Assembly (NCBI GenBank): GCA_040384705.1 | Contig: JAZKIU010000001.1 | Span: 229,675 to 293,674 of the forward strand | Direction: 5' to 3' | From: Patescibacteria group bacterium | Lineage (GTDB): Bacteria > Patescibacteriota > Minisyncoccia > Phycocordibacterales > Phycocordibacteraceae | DNA length: 64,000 nt | Part shown: positions 48,104 through 62,248 of the stretch, piece by piece | Layout of the letters: every line of letters begins with the position of its first letter | How positions within the stretch are numbered: position 1 is the stretch's first letter | Notes under the pieces: generated by a model | Seen by the model: only the letters and a program-made list of their open reading frames with translations | Told to the model about the DNA's origin: nothing | The model's database searches: none | Position numbers and translations under genes: made by a program

Positions 48104-48188
48104 GGAGGCGTCGGATAGCGGTTTATTCCACCACCTTGGAAAGGTGGCATATCGAAAGGTATCGAGAGTTCGAATCTCTCCGCCTCCG
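48104..48188 (+). tRNA. tRNA-Ser with a GGA anticodon and a long variable arm. No CCA is encoded.
   Basis: The acceptor stem is GGAGGCG/CGCCTCC. The anticodon stem CCACC/GGTGG encloses the loop TTGGAAA. The variable arm is 17 nt. The T-arm is GAGAG-TTCGAAT-CTCTC, and the discriminator base is G. Confidence 0.85.
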
Positions 48189-48258
48189 CTACAATCGTTT
48201 TCTTCATACCCACCCACCGGCATAATTCCTGGCGGGTCTGAATGTATACTTCCCATAT

Positions 48259-48891
48259 ATGGGCACGCTTCCTCATGGCGCACGATATGCTGTCGTATTG
48301 CTTGCGGCCTGCGCTATCATGCTCGCTGCGTTCGCGCTCGTGAACGCGGAAGACAGTGTCTTCGGCGAGCACGTCACAAGCCCTCGCCCGACGGTGACTT
48401 CCGCCCTTGTCGTCTCTGCGGGCTCAAGAAGCATCGAGGTAATAGAAGCCGAAGGGACTGACGAATCGGTACTGATCGTCGTGCGTATACTCGCGGACAC
48501 GGTGATATTCGCTGGCAGGGATACGGTTGAATCGGACGCGCTCGCGCAAGGGCAGCGTATCCAGATCCGCGGCACCAGGACGGAGAGTGGGATAGACGCA
48601 AGCATGATACGAATAGTCACCCTCGGAGAGGTCGAGATCGACGAGGAAGAAGTGCAGCCACTGCTCGCGGAAGAAATCGTGCCGGAGACCGTGCAGCCGG
48701 AGCCGGTTCCTGAACCCGCGCCGCCGCTCGAGTCGTCAGCCCCTCCTGCACCTGAGCCGCTCCCACCTGTGGAAGAGCCTGTCGAGGAGGAGGTGCCCGC
48801 GCCGGAACCGGAAGAGCCTCTGCCCGACGAAATAGAGCAGATGCCCGTGGTAGAACCCGCGCCGCCCGAGGGTGAGCAGCCCGAAGCATGA
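48259..48891 (+). CDS. Secreted or anchored protein with a Pro/Glu-rich C-terminal region. It is the first gene of the giant-surface-protein cluster.
   Basis: It has a signal or anchor sequence and a PEPVPEPAPP low-complexity tail. Its stop overlaps the next start (ATGA). Confidence 0.55.
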   Translation: MGTLPHGARYAVVLLAACAIMLAAFALVNAEDSVFGEHVTSPRPTVTSALVVSAGSRSIEVIEAEGTDESVLIVVRILADTVIFAGRDTVESDALAQGQRIQIRGTRTESGIDASMIRIVTLGEVEIDEEEVQPLLAEEIVPETVQPEPVPEPAPPLESSAPPAPEPLPPVEEPVEEEVPAPEPEEPLPDEIEQMPVVEPAPPEGEQPEA

Positions 48892-51800
48892 TGCGGACCG
48901 CGTATACCTCGCGCGTGCGATTCTTGGCAGCGCTCGTCCTGATGACTTTGGTCGTCATCGTCCTCTATCAGGCACTTACCGCACGCGCATTCTCGTCCGG
49001 TGCGGGTACCTGGGACGATCCGTACGTCGTCACTACCTGTGCGGAGCTCGAGAGCATAGGCTCCACGGCCGCCAACCGTCATGCGAATTACGTGCTCGGC
49101 AACGATATTGATTGCTCCAGCATCCCGAGCTACACGCCGATAGGTACTGCCAATAGCCCGTTCACCGGCCGCTTCGACGGCGCAGGGTACACCATCTCGC
49201 ACCTGACCGCAGGCAGCGCGTTCGCATCGTACGTCGGTGTATTCGGGCATGTATACGGCGGCGTCGTGCGGAACGTGCATGTGGATGACGCTGATATCCT
49301 CGGCGAGGATCATTTGGGCGCGGTCGTTGGGCAGCTGAACGCCGGTATGATCCTTGGGGTGCGGGTCACGAACTCCGCCATAGTCGTGAACGACGGACCT
49401 CGCGCAGGCGGCATCGTCGGGAACGCGACCGAATCCTATCTCAATACCGTCTCGGCGACCGGCACGAGCATAACGCTCACCAATGACACCGGGAGCAACA
49501 GCGGCATCGGCGGCATCGCGGGCGATGCGGATTTCACCAATATCACGAACGCGTATTCCGATGCGACCATCGCCGCTACCGGTGCGACCTTGGTCGGCGG
49601 CATCGTCGGCGGCTCGGCGCGCAACGTCGAGATCTCCGATTCCTATTTCGTCGGTACGGTAACCGGCACGAGCCTCGTGGGCGGTATTCTCGGGGGCGCA
49701 TCCACGGCATCAGCACCCATCACCGTGCGTTCATCGTATTTCTCCGGGGCCGCGACCGGCACCGCAGTTACGGCTATAGTGGGAGGCCTTGTCGGCAGCA
49801 TATCCGCTTCCGCATCCTTGATACAGGACTCCTTCTCGACTGGTGCGGTGTCGACAAGCACGAACGCCGGCGGCATCGTCGGCAGCTCGAACACCGCGGC
49901 GGCGAACTTCAGCAATCTCGTGTACTCCCGTGTCGGCACGACACGCTCGCGTTGCGAAGGGAACTCGCTGCCTTTAGGTGACGCTACCTATACATCCGGC
50001 CAATGCACCTTCCAGGATACGGACTCTTATTACAACAGCAGCAGCAATGCCCCGCTCTCGTCCTGGAACTTCACCGACATCTGGGAAACGGTCCCATCGA
50101 ACCGTCCGATACTCCGTGCATTCCCCTTCGTGGAGGCGACCTCCTATACATCAGTCGGCTCATGCGCCGCGCTGTCCGCAGCGCTACTCGACAATGCGAA
50201 CGGCTGGTACAGCCTCACAGGCGACATAGACTGCGCAGGAGATACCGCGCTCGCGCCCTTCGCCAGCACCTCGAGCAAGGCGTTCACGGGCAGACTCGAC
50301 GGGAACGGGCACACCATCGATGGCGTTTCGTACACCACAAGCGCTTCGGGGAACCATTATGGACTCTTCATAGCGGCATTCGGTGCTATCTTCGAGGACT
50401 TCACGCTTGCTGGTACCGGTATCGTTGCGGAGAACAAGACGGAAGTCGGCGGGCTCGCCGGCATCGGGAGCGGCAGCGTACTGCTGGGCGTGCATAGTAC
50501 GGTCCCGGTCGAGACCGGTTCGGGCGGCGACTACGTCATCGGCGGCCTGGTGGGCCAAGGCGGCGGGCTCATCATCGAGGACTCGAGCGTGAATGCCGAC
50601 GTGACGACCGACGGCTTCGGGTACGCGATAGGCGGGTTGGTCGGATTCGCCAACTATCTCCATGTAACGGACAGCCAGTACCTTGGGGGCACGGTTCGGG
50701 GCGGCGATACGGTCGGCGGCATCGTCGGGTTCGCGTCGGCCGTCTATATGGACTCGGTCGCAAGCGCGGGCACCATCACTGGCTCTTCCTATATGGGAGG
50801 CCTTGGAGGCGACGTGCTCGGGCCCTCTACCATCTCGAACTCGTCCTCGACGGCCAGCATCGTCGGGAACACCGACTACGATACCTTCTTCGGGAATATC
50901 GGCGGGCTGGTCGGGAGTGCATTCGATATCGCGTTCCTTAATGTCGTCTCGCAGAACCTCATAGATATCAGTGTCGGCGACGGAGCGGAAAGCGTCGGCG
51001 GCATCGCGGGGGTGATCGATAGCAGCGGATATACGATGACGAACGCGACCTCGACCGCAACCTTCGTCATTGCGGGGGACGCGGGCTCGTTCTGGGGGAG
51101 TATCGGCGGGCTTGTCGGCGGATCCTCCGGCCATACCTATAGCAATCTCTATGCCTCCACCACTATCGAAGTAGCAACGGCGCTCGCGCCTGCCGCTACC
51201 ATCGAGTCCATCGGCCTCATTCTCGGACTGAGCGATGGGGATACCATGGCCAGCAGCTCGGCTCTTGGAGCGATCGTGCTCCATGGCAATACGGCGAGCG
51301 GCGTCCTCAGCGATATTGGCGGCTTGGTCGGATCGATGAACGGATTCGACCACGCCGAGAACTTCGTTACGGCGGACATCGATATCACCGGCTTCAATGT
51401 ATCGAATATCGGCGGATACGCAGGCTCCGCATATGGCATCGGCTCCACACTCACGACTTCGTACGCCACGACCACCGTCACCATCCTTTCCTCGACGCCG
51501 AGCAGTATCGGCGGGTTCTTCGGGGATTTCACCAGCGCGGGGATAACGGAAACGTTCGCTCTGGGCTCGCTCGATATAACGGCCGGGCAAGGAGGCACGG
51601 GCCATGGCACACGCACAGGCGGCTTCGTCGGGAGCGCGTCGGGCGGCACGTTCGAGAACGTATACACTGCCGTGGATATATCGCTTACGGAGAATACTGC
51701 TTCTGGGAATGGCTCATCGTTCGGCGGCTTCGTCGGGTATCTCGCAGGGCTCGTCACGCTCGATAACGTGTACGCTTCGGGCGATCTTATATTCACGGCT

Positions 51801-54329
51801 TCCGGAGGCTCGACCGTTAACAGAATCGGTGGCCTCCTCGGAGAGTCTGCGGCCGCTACGAACGCCATATCGAATAGTTTCAGCGCAGGTGCGGTCACGC
51901 CGATAATCGGCTCGCTCCAGGTCGGTGGGTTCTTGGGCTTGCATAACGGCAGCGAGACGCTTGATAATAATCACTATGACGTCACGCGTTCGGGACAGGC
52001 CTTCTGTACGCAGACTGATGAAGCCTGGTGCACAGGCGACAACGTGGGCTCGGCGGACTCCGACTATTTCTATGATGATGCGAACGAGCCGATGGCGAGC
52101 TGGGACTTCAGTGCCGTCTGGGATTCCCACGATGATACGCATCCGACGTTCGAGTACTTCGCTTCCCTGTTCGGTCCAGGCGCAGAGGACGGAGGGGGAG
52201 CGACCGCGCCCACGATGACGGCCAGTGCCGCGTCCGCGGTCACGGATACCACGGCGACGCTTAACGGGAACATCACTGCCGTCGGTTCCGCGACACCGAC
52301 CGCTCGTGGCTTTGAGTACGGCCTCACGACCGCGTACGGCGCGACGACGACGGAAGCAGGGAGCTTCTCGACCGGAGCGTACACCGCATCCGCGTCGAGT
52401 CTCACATGCAATACCGCGTATCATTTCCGCTCGTACGCGACGAGCGCGGACGGCACCGGCTACAGCGCTGACGACACATTTACGACGAGCGCGTGCACAG
52501 GAGGCGGAGGCGGTGGAGGGAACGGTAGCGGCAGGAGGGAGATAGAGCCGCCCGTCATCTCGAACGTGAGGAGTACCATCACAGACGGAAGCGTCCGGAT
52601 AACGTGGGACACGGATACTCCCGCGTCGACGCAGATAGTATACGGACCGACGCAGTGCCTCGGCCTTTCGACCCCGGAATCCAATACGGGCACGAGCCGT
52701 ACGACCAAGCATGTGGTCGTGCTTCCGACGTTCGCCTGCAGGAACAGTGCCCACTTCTCCGCGCTGTCGGTAGACGCGCATGGGAACAGGAGCGTTTCCC
52801 CCGGACATTCCAATAATCTATTGCTGTGCCCAGCGTTCTCTCCGCCGCCGAGCCCCTCGCTTCTTAGTTGTCCCTATCCGCAGCCAGCTGTGCCTGTGCC
52901 AACTCCAGTGCCAGTAGCGCCCGCGCCCGCGATAAGCAGTCCTGTAGTGGAGATTCCAATCCCGCCCGCAAGCGAAATCGAACCGACGGTCATCGTCAAC
53001 GGAGGGAATCCAATTACGAACGATCCGATAGTGGGTGTACAGGTAACGCCTCCGGCAGGCACGGTCGCCTTCGTACTCTTCGATGCCGAAGATCCCTCCC
53101 ATACGGTATCGGTGCCGGTAGCCGTCGGAACCGTGGTCGTGGACCAGGAATGGGAGCTCTGCACCAATGCTTCAGCGTGTACGGGCGGGGAGCACACGCT
53201 CGCAGTATTCTTCATCGACGCGAGTGGGGCGGAATCGACCGTGATACGCCGCACCGTTACGCTCGTGAGCGGGAGGGAAGAACCGACAGCTATTTCCGCT
53301 GGCACTGAAGGAGATTCGATATTCACGCGGATAGCGGCAGGCATTGAGCGCATACTGACGGATGGCTCCCGAGCAGTCGCTCCTGTCCTCGCCTTGCTAC
53401 CTGCGGCGGGTATCGCCACGAGCGCGCTTGGAATCATCTGGGCCCTCGCTTCGCGGCTGCGTTCGCTTAGCGATATACCGATGCTTGCATATCGCGCGTT
53501 CGCTACGATATTCGGGTTCGGGTACCTGCGCAGGCGTGACAGGGCGTGGGGAACCGTGTACGACAGCCGGACGCGCCGCCCGCTCGACCCTGCGGTCGTC
53601 ACCCTGCATGACGCATCCGGGAAGGATATGAAGACGGTCATCACTGATCTCGACGGACGATTCGCCTTCCTGGCAGATGCAGGCACGTATTCCATCACCG
53701 CCGCGAAGGGCCATCATTCATTCCCTGCGCAGAACCTTCCCGCTATCGATCCGCTCTATCCATACCCATACACGGGCGGACCGATACCGGTGGGAGAGGA
53801 GGGCGTCATCGTGAAGGATATCCCACTCGACCCGGTCGATTTCGACTGGAACGAGTACGAGAAATACCGCCGCGGCCTCTACCGGTTCTTCTCCCGCTTC
53901 GACCGTCCGCTCGCGTACGCCGCCCTCATCCTCACCCCGCTCGGCGCGCTCATTTCGCTCGTTGCTGCGGTCCTCGAGCCATCGGTCATCAATATCGTGT
54001 TCCTCTTCCTCTATGCGCTCATCGGGCTCCTCTATTACGTCGCCGGGTTCGCTCCTCGCGTCTACGGCATGCTGCTTGACGCCACTGGGCAGCCGCTCGC
54101 GTTCGCCGTCGTGAAGGCGTTCCGTCCGGGTGCGACCTCGACCGGCATCCATGTGGTGGCTGACCATCTCGGCCGCTACTACCTCCTCCTGCCGCGCGAA
54201 AGCGAGTTCGATATCCAAGTGGAGATGCGTGCTGGCGAAGAAGCGTATACGCCCGTCTTCCGCGAGCGACTCACGGGATTGAAGGGGCACCTCAATCGTC
54301 ACATCCGCGTACCGCTCGATTTACCGTAG
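48888..54329 (+). CDS. Giant 1813-aa surface protein with many GLUG-type glycine-rich repeats, an Fn3/PKD-like domain, a poly-Gly linker, and C-terminal TM helices flanking two carboxypeptidase-regulatory-like (CarboxypepD_reg) domains
   Basis: It has a signal peptide and repeated IGGLVG, VGGIVG and AGGIVG motifs. PPVISNVRSTITDGSVRITWDTDTPASTQIVYGP reads as Fn3-like. GTVYDSRTRRPLDPAVVTLHDASGKDMKTVITDLDGRFAF reads as CarboxypepD_reg-like. Confidence 0.8.
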   Translation: MMRTAYTSRVRFLAALVLMTLVVIVLYQALTARAFSSGAGTWDDPYVVTTCAELESIGSTAANRHANYVLGNDIDCSSIPSYTPIGTANSPFTGRFDGAGYTISHLTAGSAFASYVGVFGHVYGGVVRNVHVDDADILGEDHLGAVVGQLNAGMILGVRVTNSAIVVNDGPRAGGIVGNATESYLNTVSATGTSITLTNDTGSNSGIGGIAGDADFTNITNAYSDATIAATGATLVGGIVGGSARNVEISDSYFVGTVTGTSLVGGILGGASTASAPITVRSSYFSGAATGTAVTAIVGGLVGSISASASLIQDSFSTGAVSTSTNAGGIVGSSNTAAANFSNLVYSRVGTTRSRCEGNSLPLGDATYTSGQCTFQDTDSYYNSSSNAPLSSWNFTDIWETVPSNRPILRAFPFVEATSYTSVGSCAALSAALLDNANGWYSLTGDIDCAGDTALAPFASTSSKAFTGRLDGNGHTIDGVSYTTSASGNHYGLFIAAFGAIFEDFTLAGTGIVAENKTEVGGLAGIGSGSVLLGVHSTVPVETGSGGDYVIGGLVGQGGGLIIEDSSVNADVTTDGFGYAIGGLVGFANYLHVTDSQYLGGTVRGGDTVGGIVGFASAVYMDSVASAGTITGSSYMGGLGGDVLGPSTISNSSSTASIVGNTDYDTFFGNIGGLVGSAFDIAFLNVVSQNLIDISVGDGAESVGGIAGVIDSSGYTMTNATSTATFVIAGDAGSFWGSIGGLVGGSSGHTYSNLYASTTIEVATALAPAATIESIGLILGLSDGDTMASSSALGAIVLHGNTASGVLSDIGGLVGSMNGFDHAENFVTADIDITGFNVSNIGGYAGSAYGIGSTLTTSYATTTVTILSSTPSSIGGFFGDFTSAGITETFALGSLDITAGQGGTGHGTRTGGFVGSASGGTFENVYTAVDISLTENTASGNGSSFGGFVGYLAGLVTLDNVYASGDLIFTASGGSTVNRIGGLLGESAAATNAISNSFSAGAVTPIIGSLQVGGFLGLHNGSETLDNNHYDVTRSGQAFCTQTDEAWCTGDNVGSADSDYFYDDANEPMASWDFSAVWDSHDDTHPTFEYFASLFGPGAEDGGGATAPTMTASAASAVTDTTATLNGNITAVGSATPTARGFEYGLTTAYGATTTEAGSFSTGAYTASASSLTCNTAYHFRSYATSADGTGYSADDTFTTSACTGGGGGGGNGSGRREIEPPVISNVRSTITDGSVRITWDTDTPASTQIVYGPTQCLGLSTPESNTGTSRTTKHVVVLPTFACRNSAHFSALSVDAHGNRSVSPGHSNNLLLCPAFSPPPSPSLLSCPYPQPAVPVPTPVPVAPAPAISSPVVEIPIPPASEIEPTVIVNGGNPITNDPIVGVQVTPPAGTVAFVLFDAEDPSHTVSVPVAVGTVVVDQEWELCTNASACTGGEHTLAVFFIDASGAESTVIRRTVTLVSGREEPTAISAGTEGDSIFTRIAAGIERILTDGSRAVAPVLALLPAAGIATSALGIIWALASRLRSLSDIPMLAYRAFATIFGFGYLRRRDRAWGTVYDSRTRRPLDPAVVTLHDASGKDMKTVITDLDGRFAFLADAGTYSITAAKGHHSFPAQNLPAIDPLYPYPYTGGPIPVGEEGVIVKDIPLDPVDFDWNEYEKYRRGLYRFFSRFDRPLAYAALILTPLGALISLVAAVLEPSVINIVFLFLYALIGLLYYVAGFAPRVYGMLLDATGQPLAFAVVKAFRPGATSTGIHVVADHLGRYYLLLPRESEFDIQVEMRAGEEAYTPVFRERLTGLKGHLNRHIRVPLDLP

Positions 54330-54520
54330 AGAATTTATCCACAGGTTGTCAACAGTTTTGGACTTCATTGACGCCTCATATACCGAGTGCCACAATTCAT
54401 CACAGGTACACATGGTACGGCGTCCATGCATAATGGATGCGGTGAAGTTCGGCGCGATGGGCTCGCGCAACAGGATTTTTATCAAGCGTTACGCAGACGT
54501 GCGCACTTAATCCATTACCC

Positions 54521-57500
54521 ATGAAAAAGAATGATGCTCGTATGACGGCACTCCGCAAGTCTCTTGCGGTATTTAATGCTGGTCTCCTCATGTTCGCGCT
54601 CGTCGCGATCAATTCCCCTCTCATTGCCATCGCACAGACGACGGACGTCACTCCTGCAGTCGAGCCCGTCGAGGAGGTAGTGCCAGAGACAGAAGAATCG
54701 ATACTGCCGCCTGCGGACGATATCGTCCCACCAGCAGACGATGTGGCACTCGTGCCGCCCGAAGAAGGCGTCGTTCCTCCTCAGGAGGAAGTCCCTCCGG
54801 TAGTAGAGGAGACGGTAGAACCGGTACTTGAACGTGCCGCCGAAGTGCTAGAGGAGGCCGTCCTCATAGACGAAGGGCCTCAGTGCATCATTCTGAGCGA
54901 CACGACGACGCTCGAGGGAGGCGACGCATCTGTCGAGGTATCGCCCTTGAACGCGGGTTGGACCGCGGTAGTCGACGTGCTTGCGAAGTGGATATGGGGC
55001 GAGAACCCTGTCGCTGACCCGATCAACGACGTCACCGAGGTATTCACCAAGACTTTCTCCATCACGGATGACTCGTCGGGGGGTACGCTCATCGTCGCAG
55101 CCGATAACTCGTATACCGTCATGCTCGACGGCAACCCTATCGGGAACCCGAACGATTCCGACGACGAGGATAACTACCATGCCGGGAAGGAGGACACGAT
55201 AGCCATTTCCGCTGCGGCGCTCGGAGCGGGAAGTCACACGCTCACCTTCACGGTGAAGAACTGGGGGCAGGCGAATGGAACCGCTGCGAAGAATCCTGCA
55301 GGACTCAAGTACAAGCTCACCATCGATGAGACGGACTGCGGAACGCCTCCTCCGCCACGCGAGCAGTGCGTGCTCGTGAGCGATACGACGACGCTCGAGG
55401 GTGGTACCGCATCTGCGCTCGTCACGTTCATTCATAATTCGTGGACCGCGCTCATCCAGAGCGCCTCCTGGATATGGGGCGAGGACCCAGCGACCGATAC
55501 GGCCGCGGGCAAGACTGAGATCTTCACCAAGACGTTCTGGCTTGATGGGGCAGTCGCAAGCTCGACGCTCCTCATCGCGGCCGATAACGGCTATACCGTG
55601 GAGCTGAACGGTGTAGAAGTGGGTGCAGACCCGCAGGAGAAGAACTACACCGCGGCAGGGCAGGACGTCATCACGATCGATGCGGGCGACTTCAACGTCG
55701 GCGCCAATACGCTCGTGTTCACCGTCGATAACTTCCCGCTCGCCAACGGAACCTCGCAGACCAACCCGGGTGGCCTCCTCTACAGGCTCACCATCGACGG
55801 GACGGAGTGCGATGACGTACCGCCCGCGCAAGAGACCGCGACGGTGTACATCATGAAGTACCTCAAGACCGCCAACGGCACAGAGCAGGTACTCGATGGC
55901 TCCGGCGCGCCCGCATTCCCGATGACCGCGTCATGGAATGCGACTAATATAGGCGCGGGCTCCGGAGGCTACACGCTCACCGCACCGACCTATGGCGCGA
56001 CCACGTCCGCTATGTCGTCTCCCGCAGACTACACGACGTCCGAAGTCACCGACGGAAGCGTCGTGCTCCCGGCCAATACGCCCGACGAGCAATGCACGCC
56101 AGGGAAGTACCGCCTAGTCGGCTACAAGTCCGGATTCACCCTTACTGACGCCCAGAATGCAGCGGTGAGCGCGACCGCCCCGGTATACACCGACATCACC
56201 TCCGACCGCTACATCATCGTGGTGAACGAGGATTGCGACGAACTGAACGAGGACCCGGACCCTACGACCCTCCAGGTGCATATCTACAAGCATCTCAAGG
56301 ATGAGCAGTCGACGGGGCAGGTTTCGAACGGAGCGAACGTGCCTGACTTCCCTATGACCGCTACCTGGACGACCGCGAACCTCAACGGAGGGGCGACGAC
56401 GAGCGGCGCGTACGTGCTCGGGAACAGCCATGGAGGAGCGACCTTCGAGCACGCGGCCAATACTTCGCCTATGCAAGCTCCCGCTGACTACACCACCTCC
56501 GAAGTCACGGACGGTTCGGTTGTCATCGCGAACGGCCAGCAGTGCGTCGCGGACAAGTACCGTCTCGTCGGCTACAAGTGGGGAACCACGTACGCGGAAG
56601 CTGTCGCGACCACGACGGTAACCGTGGCAGCACCTGAGTTCACCGACCTAACGAGCGACCGCTACGTCATCGTCGTGAACGAGGATTGTGATGATGTTCT
56701 GGACGACGGGGAGCCGACCGGTCCCGACGAGCAGACCATCGTCATCACCGGCAATACGTCGGGAGGCGAGAACCAGCTCGGTTGGTTGTTCAATCGCGAT
56801 ACCAACACCCAGTCACCGTACGCCTTCCAGGCGGGTAACGCAGCGACCGGTACGGGCAGTCTCTACGTGTCCCCGATAACGAACACGATAAACGGGAACA
56901 ACGATAAGTTCATCGGTGAGCTCTTCCTCCAGGAACAGATAGCCGATATCGATAGCATCTCGTACGACTTCAAGATCGGTACCCCGGACAGCACCGTAGA
57001 AGAGCAGTTCTACATGAGCGTCTACGCGAACTTCGGCGAGTCGAGCCCGACCAAGTTCTACGATTGCCGCTACAACGTCGTTCCTTCGACCGGTTCGACC
57101 GGAGGCTTCACGACGGTCACCTTCGACCCATCGCAGGTCTATGGAGTAACCCAGCACGGCACTTCCCCTCATCCTTGCCCTGCAACGCCATCCGGCATGG
57201 ATGCGCTCACCACCGGCTCCTCGACCATTCGCGTGATCGCGTTGAACGTAGGGGACACTACCGGAAGCGATACTGGTGTCAGCGGGTACCTCGACAAGGT
57301 GATAGTCGCGCTGAACGATCTCATCACTACGTATGACTTCGAGCCGGCACCAATTGTTCCGGGTAACGATGGCGACAATAACCGTAGCGGTGGAGGTGGA
57401 GGTGGGGGCGGAGGCTCCAGTTCCTCGGCAGCGCGAACCGGCTCGGTGCTCGGTGCGACAACCGACGCGGTCTGCAGCGCGCTCCTCTCGACCTTCATGA

Positions 57501-57790
57501 GGATGGGAACGACGAACGATGCGACCGAGGTTCTTGAGCTCCAAGGCTTCCTCAACGAGCACATGGGAGCAGGACTGCCCCTCACCGGCTTCTTCGGAGC
57601 CATGACGGACGCGGCGGTGCACGCCTTCCAGAAGAAGCACTGGGAAGATGTGCTCAAGCCATGGTTCCCATATCCTGCTGAGGGTATCCATGATGCGGAC
57701 GATTCCACGGGCTACGTGTACAAGACGACGCAGTGGAAGATAAACGACATCTACTGCCCGGACATAGCGCCGTTCCCACCGCTCCCGTAA
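54521..57790 (+). CDS. Large 1089-aa secreted repeat protein ending in a PG_binding_1 peptidoglycan-binding domain
   Basis: It has a signal peptide, two paired roughly 150-aa repeat types (C..LSDTTTLEGG...WIWGE and ...YRLVGYK...), a poly-Gly linker, and a C-terminal LELQGFLNEHMGAGLPLTGFFGAMTDAAVHAFQKKH. Confidence 0.8.
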   Translation: MKKNDARMTALRKSLAVFNAGLLMFALVAINSPLIAIAQTTDVTPAVEPVEEVVPETEESILPPADDIVPPADDVALVPPEEGVVPPQEEVPPVVEETVEPVLERAAEVLEEAVLIDEGPQCIILSDTTTLEGGDASVEVSPLNAGWTAVVDVLAKWIWGENPVADPINDVTEVFTKTFSITDDSSGGTLIVAADNSYTVMLDGNPIGNPNDSDDEDNYHAGKEDTIAISAAALGAGSHTLTFTVKNWGQANGTAAKNPAGLKYKLTIDETDCGTPPPPREQCVLVSDTTTLEGGTASALVTFIHNSWTALIQSASWIWGEDPATDTAAGKTEIFTKTFWLDGAVASSTLLIAADNGYTVELNGVEVGADPQEKNYTAAGQDVITIDAGDFNVGANTLVFTVDNFPLANGTSQTNPGGLLYRLTIDGTECDDVPPAQETATVYIMKYLKTANGTEQVLDGSGAPAFPMTASWNATNIGAGSGGYTLTAPTYGATTSAMSSPADYTTSEVTDGSVVLPANTPDEQCTPGKYRLVGYKSGFTLTDAQNAAVSATAPVYTDITSDRYIIVVNEDCDELNEDPDPTTLQVHIYKHLKDEQSTGQVSNGANVPDFPMTATWTTANLNGGATTSGAYVLGNSHGGATFEHAANTSPMQAPADYTTSEVTDGSVVIANGQQCVADKYRLVGYKWGTTYAEAVATTTVTVAAPEFTDLTSDRYVIVVNEDCDDVLDDGEPTGPDEQTIVITGNTSGGENQLGWLFNRDTNTQSPYAFQAGNAATGTGSLYVSPITNTINGNNDKFIGELFLQEQIADIDSISYDFKIGTPDSTVEEQFYMSVYANFGESSPTKFYDCRYNVVPSTGSTGGFTTVTFDPSQVYGVTQHGTSPHPCPATPSGMDALTTGSSTIRVIALNVGDTTGSDTGVSGYLDKVIVALNDLITTYDFEPAPIVPGNDGDNNRSGGGGGGGGGSSSSAARTGSVLGATTDAVCSALLSTFMRMGTTNDATEVLELQGFLNEHMGAGLPLTGFFGAMTDAAVHAFQKKHWEDVLKPWFPYPAEGIHDADDSTGYVYKTTQWKINDIYCPDIAPFPPLP

Positions 57791-58861: not shown

Positions 58862-59338
58862 ATGCGTACCCGGCTCCTCATCGCTGCGCTCGCTCTCGTC
58901 ATCGTCGTACTCGCCGCGCTGCTTATCTATACCCGTGCCCACGCGCCCGCTGAGTCGGTCGTCGCAGATACGGTAGTCAGCAAGGCGGAAGCGCTTCCGG
59001 GCGAGATAGAGGTCGTGGATACGCAGGAGAAGCGAATGCTTGGACTCTCGGGAAGAAAGGATATCGCGGACGACTACGGCATGCTTTTCGTATTCGACGC
59101 GGCAGGGAAGCACGGGTTCTGGATGAAGGACATGCTCTTCACTATCGATATCGTCTGGCTTTCCGATGATGGCACGATCGTGCACGTCGAGCATTCGGTC
59201 CCTCCTTCCAGCTACCCAAGCGTGCTCGTTACGCCGGTGCCCGCTTCGTTCGCACTTGAGACCAATGCTGGATATGCGAAGGAACATGGATGGGATACCG
59301 GCACAAAGCTCGACATCTCCAAGTACCAGTCCAATTGA
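58862..59338 (+). CDS. DUF192 (COG1430) family protein
   Basis: EVVDTQEKRMLGLSGRKDIADDYGMLFVF...DMLFTIDIVWLSDDGTIVHVEH is typical of DUF192. It has a signal or anchor sequence. Confidence 0.75.
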   Translation: MRTRLLIAALALVIVVLAALLIYTRAHAPAESVVADTVVSKAEALPGEIEVVDTQEKRMLGLSGRKDIADDYGMLFVFDAAGKHGFWMKDMLFTIDIVWLSDDGTIVHVEHSVPPSSYPSVLVTPVPASFALETNAGYAKEHGWDTGTKLDISKYQSN

Positions 59339-59366
59339 AAAGACTCGCCGCAAGGCGAGTCTTTTC
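59339..59366. terminator. Bidirectional rho-independent terminator shared by the DUF192 gene (plus) and rnpB (minus)
   Basis: AAAGACTCGCC-GCAA-GGCGAGTCTTTT with A/T runs on both sides. Confidence 0.8.
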
Positions 59367-59706
59367 ATGTATAGCGGACCCGGGCCATAAGCCGAATTCT
59401 GTACTCGTGTCTCCACGAGCGATGACCATCTATCTGGGACTATCGTTACCGATAGCCTCGAGCGGCGCTCCCCGAAGGGCACGGCCTTGCACAGTGGTAA
59501 GGATTTAGCCGTTTCAATCCCGCATCTCGGCGGGCCTGGCCCCGAAGGGCCTCCTTGGCTTTCGCCGCGGACGTCTCTGTTCGCACCTCGCGCCTTGCGG
59601 CGGACGGGCGTTACCCGCTACCGTGCTGCCGCACGAATGCGGCCTGTGTTCGGACTTTCCTCTACGCACCTTGCGGTACGCAGCGATCATCAGACCCGGG
59701 TCCAGA
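59365..59706 (-). ncRNA. rnpB: RNase P RNA, bacterial type A
   Basis: The minus strand carries P4 elements GAGGAAAGUCCG and ACAGAAUUCGGCUUAU. It also has GGGUAACGCCCG (P8/P9-like) and GUGCGAACAGAGA. P1 pairs GGACCCGGGUC with GGCCCGGGUCC. The length is about 340 nt. Confidence 0.85.
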
Positions 59707-59709
59707 TGG

Positions 59710-59738
59710 ATTATACGACACTATGACTTTTCCACAAC
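59710..59738 (-). promoter_or_regulatory. rnpB promoter (minus strand: -35 TTGTGG, 17-nt spacer, -10 TATAAT)
   Basis: The consensus -10 hexamer sits 7 nt upstream of the P1 5' end. Confidence 0.6.
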
Positions 59739-59836
59739 CAGCTTACTTCATGAAGCGCTCGTCCCCAGCCGCGGGCGCTGAGCGAAGCCTTCCGAGCTAT
59801 AATCAGTCCATTAGTAGGGCTGTGTAATAGGAAACC

Positions 59837-62248
59837 ATGCAAGAAAACCAAGCACCATCTGCAGCGGCACGCAGATTCTCGTTCGACAAGGCGGCGACCC
59901 TCGCCATCGTGCTCACCGTCGCGCTCGCCGCGATCGCGATGATATTCCCGTTCAAACCGGTAGTCATCATCCCGTTCCTTTATACGAAGGTCTCCATTCT
60001 CGCTATCGGAGCCCTTATCGCGCTCGCCCTGTTCATACTCGCGCGCCTTACCCGCGGGAACATCGTTATCCCGCCTCCAGCGCTCCTGGGCGCCCTCTGG
60101 CTGGTTCCGTTCGCATACGCGCTTTCGACGCTGTTCTCCGGGGTCTCTGCTGAGGCCGCGTTCTTCGGTCGTGAGCTCGAGACCGATACGTTCGGCTTCG
60201 TGCTCCTGCTCGCGGCGCTTGCGAGCCTTACCGCGCTCGCGTTCCGTCGCGGCAAGGAATACCGCACCTTCTTCCGTGTGCTCGGTGTCACGCTCGGCAT
60301 CGTGCTCGTCGCTGAAGCGGTATTCATCCTGGTCGGACGTCTCGCGCCGAGCCTCATGGCGCCGACGACGAATCTCATCGGTTCCTTCCCCGACCTCGGC
60401 ATGGTGGTCGGTCTTGGGGTCGTTACGACGTTGCTTGCCCTACGTCTCCTCGCGCTCGCCCCACGCACCCGCACCCTCCTCTATATCGCGGGAGCGGTCA
60501 GTCTCCTCATCGTCGCCTTGGTGAACTCTCCGCTCATATGGAGCCTCATCGCGCTTGTCGCGCTCGCGCTCTTTATAGAGGCGATCATGCGCCACCGCAC
60601 TTCGTCTTCTGACGAGAGCGACCTCGACGGTGTCGCGCTCCTCCTCTCCGAGAACGAAGCGGAATCGCGGGGTACGGACTCTCGTTCGCTGCTCGCTCCC
60701 TTGATAACGCTCGCTATTTCCATCTTCTTCATCGTGGGCGGCTCCACCATCGGGAACGCGCTCGTTTCCTCGTTCGGAACGAACCTCATCGACGTCCGTC
60801 CATCGTGGCAGTCGACCTTCGAAGTGGGAAGCCATACCTACGCATCTTCGCCGCTCTTCGGATCAGGCCCCGGCACGTTCGGCGAGCAGTGGCTCAAGTT
60901 CCGTGACCGCGCCATCAATGACACCGTCTTCTGGAACATCGACTTCGTCTCCGGCATAGGCAGTATCCCGACCTCGCTCGTAACGACCGGCATCGTGGGC
61001 GTGCTCGCGTGGCTCGCGTTCCTCGGTATCTTCCTCTTTGTGGGCGTACGCACGCTCCTCTTCCGCTTGCCGCAGGACGCGTTCATGCGCTTCGTCGCCG
61101 TATCCTCATTCGTCGCCAGCCTCTACGTGCTCACGCTCTCGGTATTCACCGTACCCGGGCCCGTCGTGCTCTCGATAGGATTCCTCTTCATCGGTCTCTT
61201 CATCTCATCGCTGCGGCATGCGAGCCGTGCGAACGAATGGGGCATCGTGTTCTCAAAGAATCCCCGAGTCGGCTTCGTCATCGTGTTCGCTCTCACGCTC
61301 CTTCTTCTTGCATCCATTCTCGCGGCATACGTCGTCGTCGGGCGGTACCTCGCGGCAGTCGCGTACACCGACGGCGCGCAGGCACTCGCTGCAGGCGACC
61401 TTGAGAAGGCGAACGGCGCTATCGAGCGCTCCATTGGGTTCGCCGCCAGCGATAGGGCATACCAGCTCGCAAGCGCGGTCGGCATCGCGCGTATGAACCA
61501 GGTCGCGTCGGACAGCGAGCTCGCGCCCGCCACCGCCCAGCAGGCATTCCAGGCTGCGCTCTCCGGAAGCATCCAGGCAGCCCTTACCGCGACGAAGCTC
61601 GGACCGAACAACTACCAGAACTGGGCGATGCTCGGCAATGTGTACCAGACGGTGGTGCCGCTCCGTATCGAGGGAGCGTACGATAATGCGAAGACCGCAT
61701 ACGAGCGTGCGATAAGCCTCAACCCTACCTCGCCGGTCCTGCAGTACGTCGCTGCGCAGCTCGAGATAGCGCAGGGTAACGCTCCTGCGGCAGAGGAACG
61801 CCTCGTATCCGCCATCAACCTCAAGCGCGACTACACCCAGGCTATCTTCCTCCTCTCGCAGCTCGAGGTGCAGCAGGGCCGCGCACGCGAAGCCCTCCAG
61901 GCAGCGGAGGCGGCAGCGTACTTCGCACCGAACGATCCGGTCGTGCTCTTCCAGGTGGGCATCCTCCGTTCCGCGAACGGGGACAACGATGGGGCAATCG
62001 TCGCGCTCGCGCGTGCCGTCGAGCTCAACCCGCAGTACGCGAACGCCCGCTTCTTCCTCGGCGTGATGCACGCTATCAAGGGCCAGTACGCCGAAGCGAT
62101 AGCTGATCTCGAATCGGTCGCTGCGCTCTCCGAAGCGAACGCGCAATCGGTCGCAGCCGACCTCGCGCAGCTCCGTGCCGGCAAGAACCCATTCCCGCCC
62201 TCACGGTTAGGAGCGCTCGGGATACCGGCAACGTCCGTAACCCCGTAA
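59837..62248 (+). CDS. O-antigen ligase (Wzy_C)-family membrane protein fused to a C-terminal TPR-repeat domain
   Basis: It has about 12 TM helices and the O-antigen-ligase loop motif (YASSPLFGSGPGTFGEQW). The C-terminal roughly 300 aa are TPR-like repeats. Confidence 0.8.
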   Translation: MQENQAPSAAARRFSFDKAATLAIVLTVALAAIAMIFPFKPVVIIPFLYTKVSILAIGALIALALFILARLTRGNIVIPPPALLGALWLVPFAYALSTLFSGVSAEAAFFGRELETDTFGFVLLLAALASLTALAFRRGKEYRTFFRVLGVTLGIVLVAEAVFILVGRLAPSLMAPTTNLIGSFPDLGMVVGLGVVTTLLALRLLALAPRTRTLLYIAGAVSLLIVALVNSPLIWSLIALVALALFIEAIMRHRTSSSDESDLDGVALLLSENEAESRGTDSRSLLAPLITLAISIFFIVGGSTIGNALVSSFGTNLIDVRPSWQSTFEVGSHTYASSPLFGSGPGTFGEQWLKFRDRAINDTVFWNIDFVSGIGSIPTSLVTTGIVGVLAWLAFLGIFLFVGVRTLLFRLPQDAFMRFVAVSSFVASLYVLTLSVFTVPGPVVLSIGFLFIGLFISSLRHASRANEWGIVFSKNPRVGFVIVFALTLLLLASILAAYVVVGRYLAAVAYTDGAQALAAGDLEKANGAIERSIGFAASDRAYQLASAVGIARMNQVASDSELAPATAQQAFQAALSGSIQAALTATKLGPNNYQNWAMLGNVYQTVVPLRIEGAYDNAKTAYERAISLNPTSPVLQYVAAQLEIAQGNAPAAEERLVSAINLKRDYTQAIFLLSQLEVQQGRAREALQAAEAAAYFAPNDPVVLFQVGILRSANGDNDGAIVALARAVELNPQYANARFFLGVMHAIKGQYAEAIADLESVAALSEANAQSVAADLAQLRAGKNPFPPSRLGALGIPATSVTP

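Follow-up and report, generated by a model that had tools for sequence, protein, structure and literature searches.

In the 64-kb stretch of Patescibacteria DNA analysed here (the window), rnpB, which encodes RNase P RNA, occupies a gap of approximately 500 nucleotides (nt). The RNA is of the reduced type known from Patescibacteria with tiny genomes. The gene lies on the minus strand, has its own predicted promoter, and is followed by a predicted terminator shared with a convergent gene for a DUF192 protein. We give a probability of about 0.96 to this reading, in which rnpB is a separate transcription unit. The rnpB product is a ribozyme; it is the catalytic RNA subunit that removes 5' leaders from precursor tRNAs. 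A first-pass annotation of the window had proposed such an RNA on the minus strand of the gap. It described the RNA as textbook type A, transcribed from its own promoter, and masked by three spurious open reading frames (ORFs).

Identification and core structure of the RNA

The whole window was compared with Rfam 15. RF00010, the model for bacterial RNase P class A, was the sole match at the gathering threshold. The match, on the minus strand of the gap (rnpB in Table 1), scored 120.4 bits with an E value of 2.7e-36; the gathering score is 100. This is far above chance expectation. The alignment spans model positions 1-367 and is not truncated, with the score above the curated threshold over the full model. 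In a permissive rescan of the rnpB region, RF00010 stayed the best member of its clan, and lower-scoring clan members were removed by clan competition. The stretch is also more stable, when folded, than 100 of 100 dinucleotide shuffles (z -3.9). Note that the minimum free energy fold of the whole RNA is used only as this significance check; it is not the true structure, since the pseudoknot is beyond such folding and the S-domain comes out wrongly paired. P1 extends from 59703 (the 5' G) to 59376, and the Rfam match adds 4 nt (GCUA). All motifs quoted at first pass were located by reading the sequence directly; each is on the minus strand, at the site given for it.

Table 1. Positions of rnpB, its helices, its predicted signals and the overlapping ORFs, in window coordinates unless a locus from a relative is named.
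Feature	Position	Strand	Detail or basis
rnpB	59372..59703	-	RF00010 match, homologs in syntenic loci, covariation across 64 relatives
P1 strands	GGACCCGGGTC 59703-59693 and GGCCCGGGTCC 59386-59376	-	direct reading
P4-strand motifs quoted at first pass	GAGGAAAGTCCG 59662-59651 and ACAGAATTCGGCTTAT 59402-59387	-	direct reading
Other elements quoted at first pass	GGGTAACGCCCG 59616-59605; GTGCGAACAGAGA 59586-59574	-	direct reading
P4 5' strand, AAGUCCGAA	59649..59657	-	U59654 bulged; pairs with 59389-59396
P4 3' strand, UUCGGCUU	59389..59396	-	pair counts in 64 sequences
Hairpin between P5 and P7, GCCGCA-UUCG-UGCGGC	59628..59643	-	insertion relative to RF00010 consensus
Short P12	59552..59571	-	3-bp outer stem, 2x2 internal loop, 3-bp inner stem, GAAA loop
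Two hairpins 3' of P12	59518..59551	-	GGCCC-UUCG-GGGCC, then GCCCGC-(C)GAGA(U)-GCGGGA
Minimal P15	59464..59486	-	3-bp stem, internal loop CGUG / AGC, 3-bp stem with UUCG loop
P18	59438..59457	-	8 bp, GUAA (GNRA) loop
P19-like hairpin, CUCGUG-GAGA-CACGAG	59404..59419	-	between P2 3' strand and P4 3' strand
Predicted -10 box, TATAAT	59715-59710	-	direct reading; conserved position in relatives
Predicted -35 element, TTGTGG	59737-59732	-	direct reading; 16-nt spacer to -10
Predicted bidirectional intrinsic terminator, AAAA-GACTCGCC-TTGC-GGCGAGTC-TTTT	59338..59365	both	folding and conservation
Terminator arms, AAAAGACTCGCC / GGCGAGTCTTTT	59365-59354 / 59349-59338	-	direct reading
Three overlapping mechanical ORFs	59290-59508, 59487-59726, 59555-59827 (span 59290..59827)	+	ORF list
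rnpB on the inverted strand, examples	L010:6038-6364, L011:6107-6425		more distant relatives

Relatives were compared via nhmmer, MAFFT and a secondary structure derived by hand. The structure was taken from the Rfam alignment, plus the first seven homologs, and mapped onto a MAFFT alignment of 64 non-identical relatives. The pairing figures given below refer to this alignment. Standard pairs fill 87.4% of cells, compared with 71.7% for shuffled partners and 37-45% when partners were slid by 1-3 columns. Similarly, both sides have changed in 76 of 102 pairs; the equivalent numbers are 64.8 for shuffled partners and 47-55 for those slid by 1-3 columns. None of 500 shuffles attained the observed pairing values.

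The P4 pseudoknot (GAAAGUCC... with ...GGCUU) comprises eight pairs, and 100% of cells are paired. One pair, between RNA positions 54 and 309, is A-U in 57 sequences and G-C in the other seven, and so is compensatory. The U at RNA position 50 is unpaired and corresponds to the bulged U of P4. Pairing of the pseudoknot strands, as proposed at first pass, is thus borne out. The remaining core helices P1, P2, P3, P5, P7, P8, P9, P10/11, P12 and P15 are present and, save P1 and P12, are 89-100% paired. For P2, P3, P8, P9, P10, P15 and P18, pairing of 90-100% is accompanied by compensatory changes. Pairing in P12 is 74-81%, and most core helices have changed on both sides. In P18 (96% paired) this is true of all eight pairs, and G255 and A258 of the loop are invariant. 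L8 reads UAACG, with U91, A92 and A93 invariant; L9 reads GCAA, with A109 invariant, and P1 has runs of C-G and G-C pairs. We conclude that the universal bacterial core is kept: P1-P5, P7-P11, the P4 pseudoknot with its bulged U, P15, and P18. The L8, L9 and L18 elements fit the known type A inter-domain contacts L8-P4, L9-P1 and L18-P8, which are predicted here from the loop sequences. The RNA would process 5' leaders of precursor tRNAs, by an endonucleolytic activity that we infer from its sequence.

The gap is also covered by three overlapping plus-strand ORFs, and the alternative must be considered that these are real small protein genes, with the similarity to RNase P RNA being incidental. 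The ORFs do exist. Furthermore, long stop-free stretches antisense to rnpB are common in relatives (median 86 codons). However, because the sequence is conserved and G+C-rich, such openness is not evidence of coding. We dropped the longest antisense stop-free stretch as a coding test, since long open stretches are common, and used indel frame and codon periodicity. In relatives, indels that are not multiples of 3 occur inside each ORF. Variable columns fall evenly on the three codon positions, with counts of 14/17/17, 21/26/21 and 13/12/18 for the three ORFs, and so show no periodicity. Instead, sequence variation tracks RNA base pairs. None of the plus-strand ORFs over rnpB has a Pfam match at E ≤ 1, and the public gene calls for relatives place no gene over rnpB. 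Hence, the ORFs are spurious, in agreement with the first pass, and the notion that they are genes, to which we assign almost no probability, is refuted to a practical standard. The outcome is a corrected annotation, with one essential RNA gene in place of three meaningless ORFs. The first-pass term 'unannotated' holds for the list of ORFs. The gene is usable as a phylogenetic marker, another point made at first pass, and as a marker of completeness. Note that this is an ordinary housekeeping RNA gene, which a standard Infernal/Rfam pass detects; it holds nothing unexpected for a specialist.

Promoter and terminator

The promoter and terminator were called by direct reading, folding and comparative conservation. 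The first-pass promoter elements, TATAAT and TTGTGG, are present on the minus strand and the position of the -10 box is conserved. The spacer had been given as 17 nt but is 16 nt. A further small correction concerns the distance to P1, given at first pass as 7 nt: TATAAT is followed by six bases and then by the first G of P1, which is the seventh base downstream. In 59 of 69 relatives, a -10-type hexamer (at least 5/6 matches to TATAAT) starts 8-13 nt before the RNA. Over the other 110 positions examined, TATAAT-like hexamers are found only as scattered singletons. Many relatives have the extended form TGnTATAAT. For the closest relatives, the -35 position reads TTGTGA (L002 and L006) or TTGTCA (L007 and L009), with the same 16-nt spacing. 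The predicted sigma-70-type promoter (TTGTGG, 16 nt, TATAAT) agrees with the rule that spacing be 16-18 nt. Transcription from this promoter would begin at or beside G59703, the base with which P1 starts.

At the other end of the gene, a hairpin is predicted to terminate transcription in both directions. On the rnpB strand, AAAAGACUCGCC-UUGC-GGCGAGUCUUUU folds with a free energy of -28.1 kcal/mol (z -6.2), and the value for the plus strand is -27.5 kcal/mol (z -7.2). The structure is an 8-bp G+C-rich stem, lengthened by A/U pairs, and followed on both strands by UUUUC. The final base of the DUF192 stop codon (TGA, 59336-59338) is also the first base of the terminator, which can hence serve both rnpB and the convergent gene. 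Folding, and conservation in relatives, support the first-pass view that the 3' end of the RNA abuts such a shared element. A strict rule finds an equivalent A-tract, GC-hairpin and T-tract after rnpB in 51 of 69 relatives; inspection by eye finds them in nearly all. Since the element is also conserved where rnpB is not beside DUF192, the terminator belongs primarily to rnpB. Lying 7-10 nt beyond P1, the hairpin and its U-tract would end the rnpB transcript and also serve DUF192.

A simple scan for consensus promoters and terminators detected neither the rnpB promoter nor its terminator. The promoter was missed because TTGTGG matches TTGACA at just 3 of 6 positions. The terminator was probably missed because its A and T tracts pair, extending the stem. 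To our knowledge, few promoters have been examined in Patescibacteria; the locus provides a complete predicted transcription unit (promoter, start and terminator) for a genome of this group. In 42 of 69 relatives, the space from the 3' end of P1 to the terminator hairpin contains a short (C)ATG and, after it, a purine/A-rich run. In the window, this element is at 59366-59371 (ACATGAAAAG). It may be a determinant of 3' processing or just the context of the terminator A-tract.

Peripheral helices and comparison with known types

Outside the core, the RNA departs from the RF00010 consensus in several places; each departure is borne out by the comparison of relatives, and the remodelling of the periphery is lineage-specific. 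The hairpin between P5 and P7 is 89% paired, with both-side changes in four of six pairs, and its loop varies freely (UUCG, GAAA, GCAA and others). It occupies the P5.1 position of type B RNAs, in place of the P6 5' strand. P12 spans just 20 nt, with both-side changes in all six pairs. The two hairpins that follow are 71% and 87.5% paired and every pair has changed on both sides. The second has a conserved GNRA-type loop, in which G176 and A179 are at least 90% conserved. Next is UGAAAC (59511-59516), which matches the Rfam J12/13 consensus GUGAAA and leads directly to GGCUAAAUCC of the P11 3' strand. In four relatives (L015, L062, L032 and L056) there is a single hairpin between P12 and UGAAAC. 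We rejected the names P13 and P14 for these hairpins, as they would imply homology; UGAAAC is 3' of both, and some relatives hold one hairpin. According to the Rfam consensus line, E. coli-type P13/P14 come after the UGAAAC-type motif. Hence, the hairpins lie outside the canonical P13/P14 position; they may or may not be displaced homologs of P13/P14. In the Rfam alignment, P13/P14 pairs are marked non-canonical or deleted.

The 15 nt between the P15 strands stand for 44 consensus positions in the Rfam alignment and fold as a 3-bp hairpin with a UUCG loop. Hence, P16, P17 and the L17 partner that forms P6 are absent. The P15 pairs are 97-99% paired, with compensatory changes. In the P15 internal loop, four bases (C221, G222, U223 and G236) never vary, and conservation of G224 and A235 is 90% or more. 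We looked in this loop for GGU, the motif that binds the 3'-CCA of tRNA, and it is absent; CGUG / AGC is conserved in the 64 relatives. The P19-like hairpin (88% paired, both-side changes in all six pairs) is found in about 40 of the 64 relatives and is absent from the others. In the alignment of 64 relatives, neither the P15-P18 interval nor the P10-P11 interval contains a helix; P10.1, P15.1 and P15.2 are absent.

The resemblance to class A (RF00010; E. coli M1 RNA and Thermotoga maritima) extends to P1-P5, P7-P12, P15, P18 and the bulged U of P4. The class A junctions GAGGAAAGUCC, ACAGA, UGAAAC-GG-CUAAAUCC, GCAAGG, AGAUAGAUG and ACAGAAUUCGGCUUAU are also present. Similarly, the GNRA L18, GYAA L9 and tandem G-C pairs in P1 are like the elements of type A contacts (PMC5066622). 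Unlike class A, the RNA has no P6 pseudoknot, P16, P17 or L15 GGU, its P12 is short, and there is an extra hairpin between P5 and P7. Unlike in E. coli, there are no helices from the J12/13-like UGAAAC to the P11 3' strand; two hairpins between P12 and UGAAAC are found instead. Hence, the first-pass description as textbook type A is inaccurate, given the missing P6, P16, P17 and GGU and the extra hairpins.

The type A architecture used here is that of Haas & Brown and Massire et al., as given in later summaries (PMC5066622, PMC7191817 and PMC2858038). In published definitions, type A is marked in its C-domain by the P6 pseudoknot, and type B by the L5.1-L15.1 contact (PMC5066622). P5.1 is confined to type B, and P10.1 and P15.1 are common to types B and C (PMC2858038 Table 3; PMC7191817). 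The window RNA has neither the type A nor the type B hallmark. Like class B (RF00011; Bacillus subtilis), it has no P6, P16 or P17, has hairpins at the P5.1 and P19 positions, and has a UGAAAC-type junction leading straight into the P11 3' strand. Unlike class B, it is without P15.1 (and so the L5.1-L15.1 contact), P10.1 and P15.2; the loop of the extra hairpin is variable, and the type A model scores higher. Type C (Thermomicrobium roseum, Chloroflexi) is the case, in published work, of a type A RNA that was remodelled independently and convergently. However, type C keeps P6, P16 and P17 and has P10.1 and P15.1 (PMC2858038 Table 3), none of which is in the window RNA. We rejected membership of both type B and type C, since the RNA has neither P15.1 nor P10.1.

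Published examples of diverged RNase P RNAs broadly like this one already exist for the candidate phyla radiation (CPR; Lui et al. 2021, PLoS Comput Biol, PMC8172020). In that paper, many CPR RNAs are reported to be without P13, P14, P16 and P17, and the CCA-binding motif is missing in 23 of 35. Ten of the 35 are under Rfam thresholds, most needed manual refolding after cmsearch, and loss of P13/14/16/17 is called 'not unusual' for derived type A RNAs. Compared with the RNAs described there, the window RNA is from the same superphylum, with matching helix losses and loss of the CCA motif. It differs in still scoring above the Rfam threshold and in retaining P12, P15 and P18; by that account, it is a mild member of the group. 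The section of PMC8172020 consulted makes no mention of a hairpin at the P5.1 position or of hairpins after P12. A literature search pairing RNase P RNA with Patescibacteria returned no match. The P5.1-position hairpin, and the placement of the hairpins after P12, may be undescribed, and would refine a known picture.

No 3' CCA is encoded by 34 of the 43 distinct tRNA genes in the loci fetched. Among these 34 is tRNA-Ser(GGA), at 48104-48189, the only tRNA gene in the window. Loss of GGU may go with tRNA genes that mostly do not encode CCA. The reduced periphery is consistent with the published picture, in which a trimmed CPR RNase P acts on tRNA precursors mostly without encoded CCA.

The missing helices, and low Rfam score, raise the prospect that the gene is a decayed, non-functional copy of rnpB. 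A pseudogene would explain the score of just 120 bits and the absence of P6, P16, P17, canonical P13/P14, and GGU. Conversely, the same reduced architecture is found in 64 relatives, where every helix shows compensatory changes and the catalytic core does not vary. Both the promoter and the terminator are conserved, and relatives score alike, with RF00010 at 117-124 bits in each for which the rnpB junction was fetched. Moreover, this is the sole Rfam match in the window. The reductions also match those of complete CPR genomes in which such an rnpB is the only copy (PMC8172020). We conclude that a pseudogene is very improbable.

Several points weigh against a functional rnpB with the structure and signals described. 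The score for RF00010 is just 20 bits over the threshold and alignment accuracy is 0.82; this is because the P12-P14 and P15-P17 regions misfit the model. P1 has 11 perfect pairs in the window sequence and is 46% paired in the alignment, a low figure that arises because MAFFT misplaces variable termini. The structure was partly derived from the window sequence, and so the control with slid partners favours it. The motif used to collect relatives covers the base of the extra P5-P7 hairpin; hence, the apparent universality of this hairpin in the clade is biased. The rnpA protein gene was not found in the 64-kb window, although it is not expected there. A search of the same 64 kb for rpmH, which usually neighbours rnpA, found none. 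Finally, the ends of the transcript (both the transcription start and the 3' end), catalytic activity and tertiary contacts are predictions from sequence.

With rnpB identified, the status of its periphery can be considered separately. Tentatively, and at rather less than even odds, we propose that Paceibacteria-type Patescibacteria share an RNase P RNA architecture outside all named bacterial types. In this architecture, a type A core would be combined with loss of GGU and replacement of P6/P16/P17 by a lone hairpin in the P5.1 position, without P15.1. Two hairpins between P12 and J12/13 would replace P13/P14, and the conserved GNRA loop could take on an L14-like docking role. If true, this would be a further independent route, after types B and C, to a remodelled ribozyme periphery, and would provide a marker for the clade.

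A related proposal is that the Paceibacteria-type RNA is not type A at all, and forms a separate architectural class. In its favour are the absence of P6, P16 and P17, a covarying hairpin at the P5.1 position without P15.1, its partner in type B, and extra hairpins 5' of UGAAAC when E. coli-type P13/P14 are 3' of it. The RNA also falls outside the published hallmark definitions (PMC5066622; PMC2858038 Table 3). However, the best clan match is the Rfam type A model, above threshold, and the S-domain junctions resemble those of type A, as do the L8, L9 and L18 loops. That the loss of P13/14/16/17 is called 'not unusual' in derived type A RNAs (PMC8172020) points the same way. We consider a separate class unlikely. 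Note that the question is one of classification only; the identity of the gene is unaffected.

Gene order, relatives and insertions

The motif used to collect relatives was the 21-nt sequence GAGGAAAGTCCGRACACAGGC, which covers the P4 5' strand as well as P5 and the base of the hairpin that follows. It is present in 77 contigs, from 185,579 species genomes, and all 77 are Patescibacteria MAGs (metagenome-assembled genomes) or unclassified MAGs. The DUF192 protein (58862-59338, Pfam PF02643) shares 100% identity with an NCBI protein of a 'Patescibacteria group bacterium' MAG, encoded on a 640-kb contig, and has homologs that are nearly all from Paceibacteria/Parcubacteria. The source of the window is a MAG from a Paceibacteria-type member of the Patescibacteria. 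The order of genes (CAP-domain protein, DUF192, the approximately 500-nt gap, an 803-aa TPR membrane protein, then MurJ) is kept in relatives with DUF192 proteins only about 47% identical. In more distant relatives, a ribonucleotide reductase gene (class II-like) is between DUF192 and rnpB, and the rnpB strand is inverted. The gene adjoins that for the TPR membrane protein (about 800 aa) in every relative for which the junction was fetched, inverted cases included.

The TPR protein of the window is encoded at 59837-62248; its N-terminal part is a polytopic membrane region without a Pfam match. Upstream of the CAP-domain protein, within 48888-57790 on the plus strand, are two very large ORFs of secreted or surface type. 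The first encodes 1813 aa, with a CarboxypepD_reg domain. The second encodes 1089 aa; it contains internal duplications, and its peptidoglycan-binding match is weak. The tRNA-Ser(GGA) gene is within a few kb of rnpB in many relatives (L014-L090 loci) and 11 kb away in the window.

Some relatives have insertions in rnpB. For L073 (Ca. Kaiserbacteria MAG JAPLWH010000032.1, 3756-4353), rnpB matches RF00010 at only 44.4 bits. An insertion of approximately 300 nt is located in the distal P15 hairpin and closed by a perfect 18-bp stem, CCAGCCCCAGTTTTAGGT...ACCTAAAACTGGGGCTGG. Between these 18-bp inverted repeats, the insertion encodes an 86-aa GIY-YIG nuclease (Pfam PF01541, E 3e-17). We looked for a group I intron in the same approximately 300 nt and detected none. 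A 13-mer of the inverted repeat and its complement make up the base of P3 as well, both in L073, where P3 is enlarged, and in L085 (5711-5723). The pattern resembles that of a palindromic mobile element that lands in hairpin loops of rnpB and may or may not carry a GIY-YIG ORF. An element of the L073 type is absent from the window. In five further relatives (L019, L024, L026, L080 and L090), rnpB is 407-453 nt long, with insertions of 70-100 nt around P15 that split the nhmmer matches. These fit the extended P15 helices that the legend to S5 Fig of PMC8172020 describes in some RNase P RNAs of the CPR.

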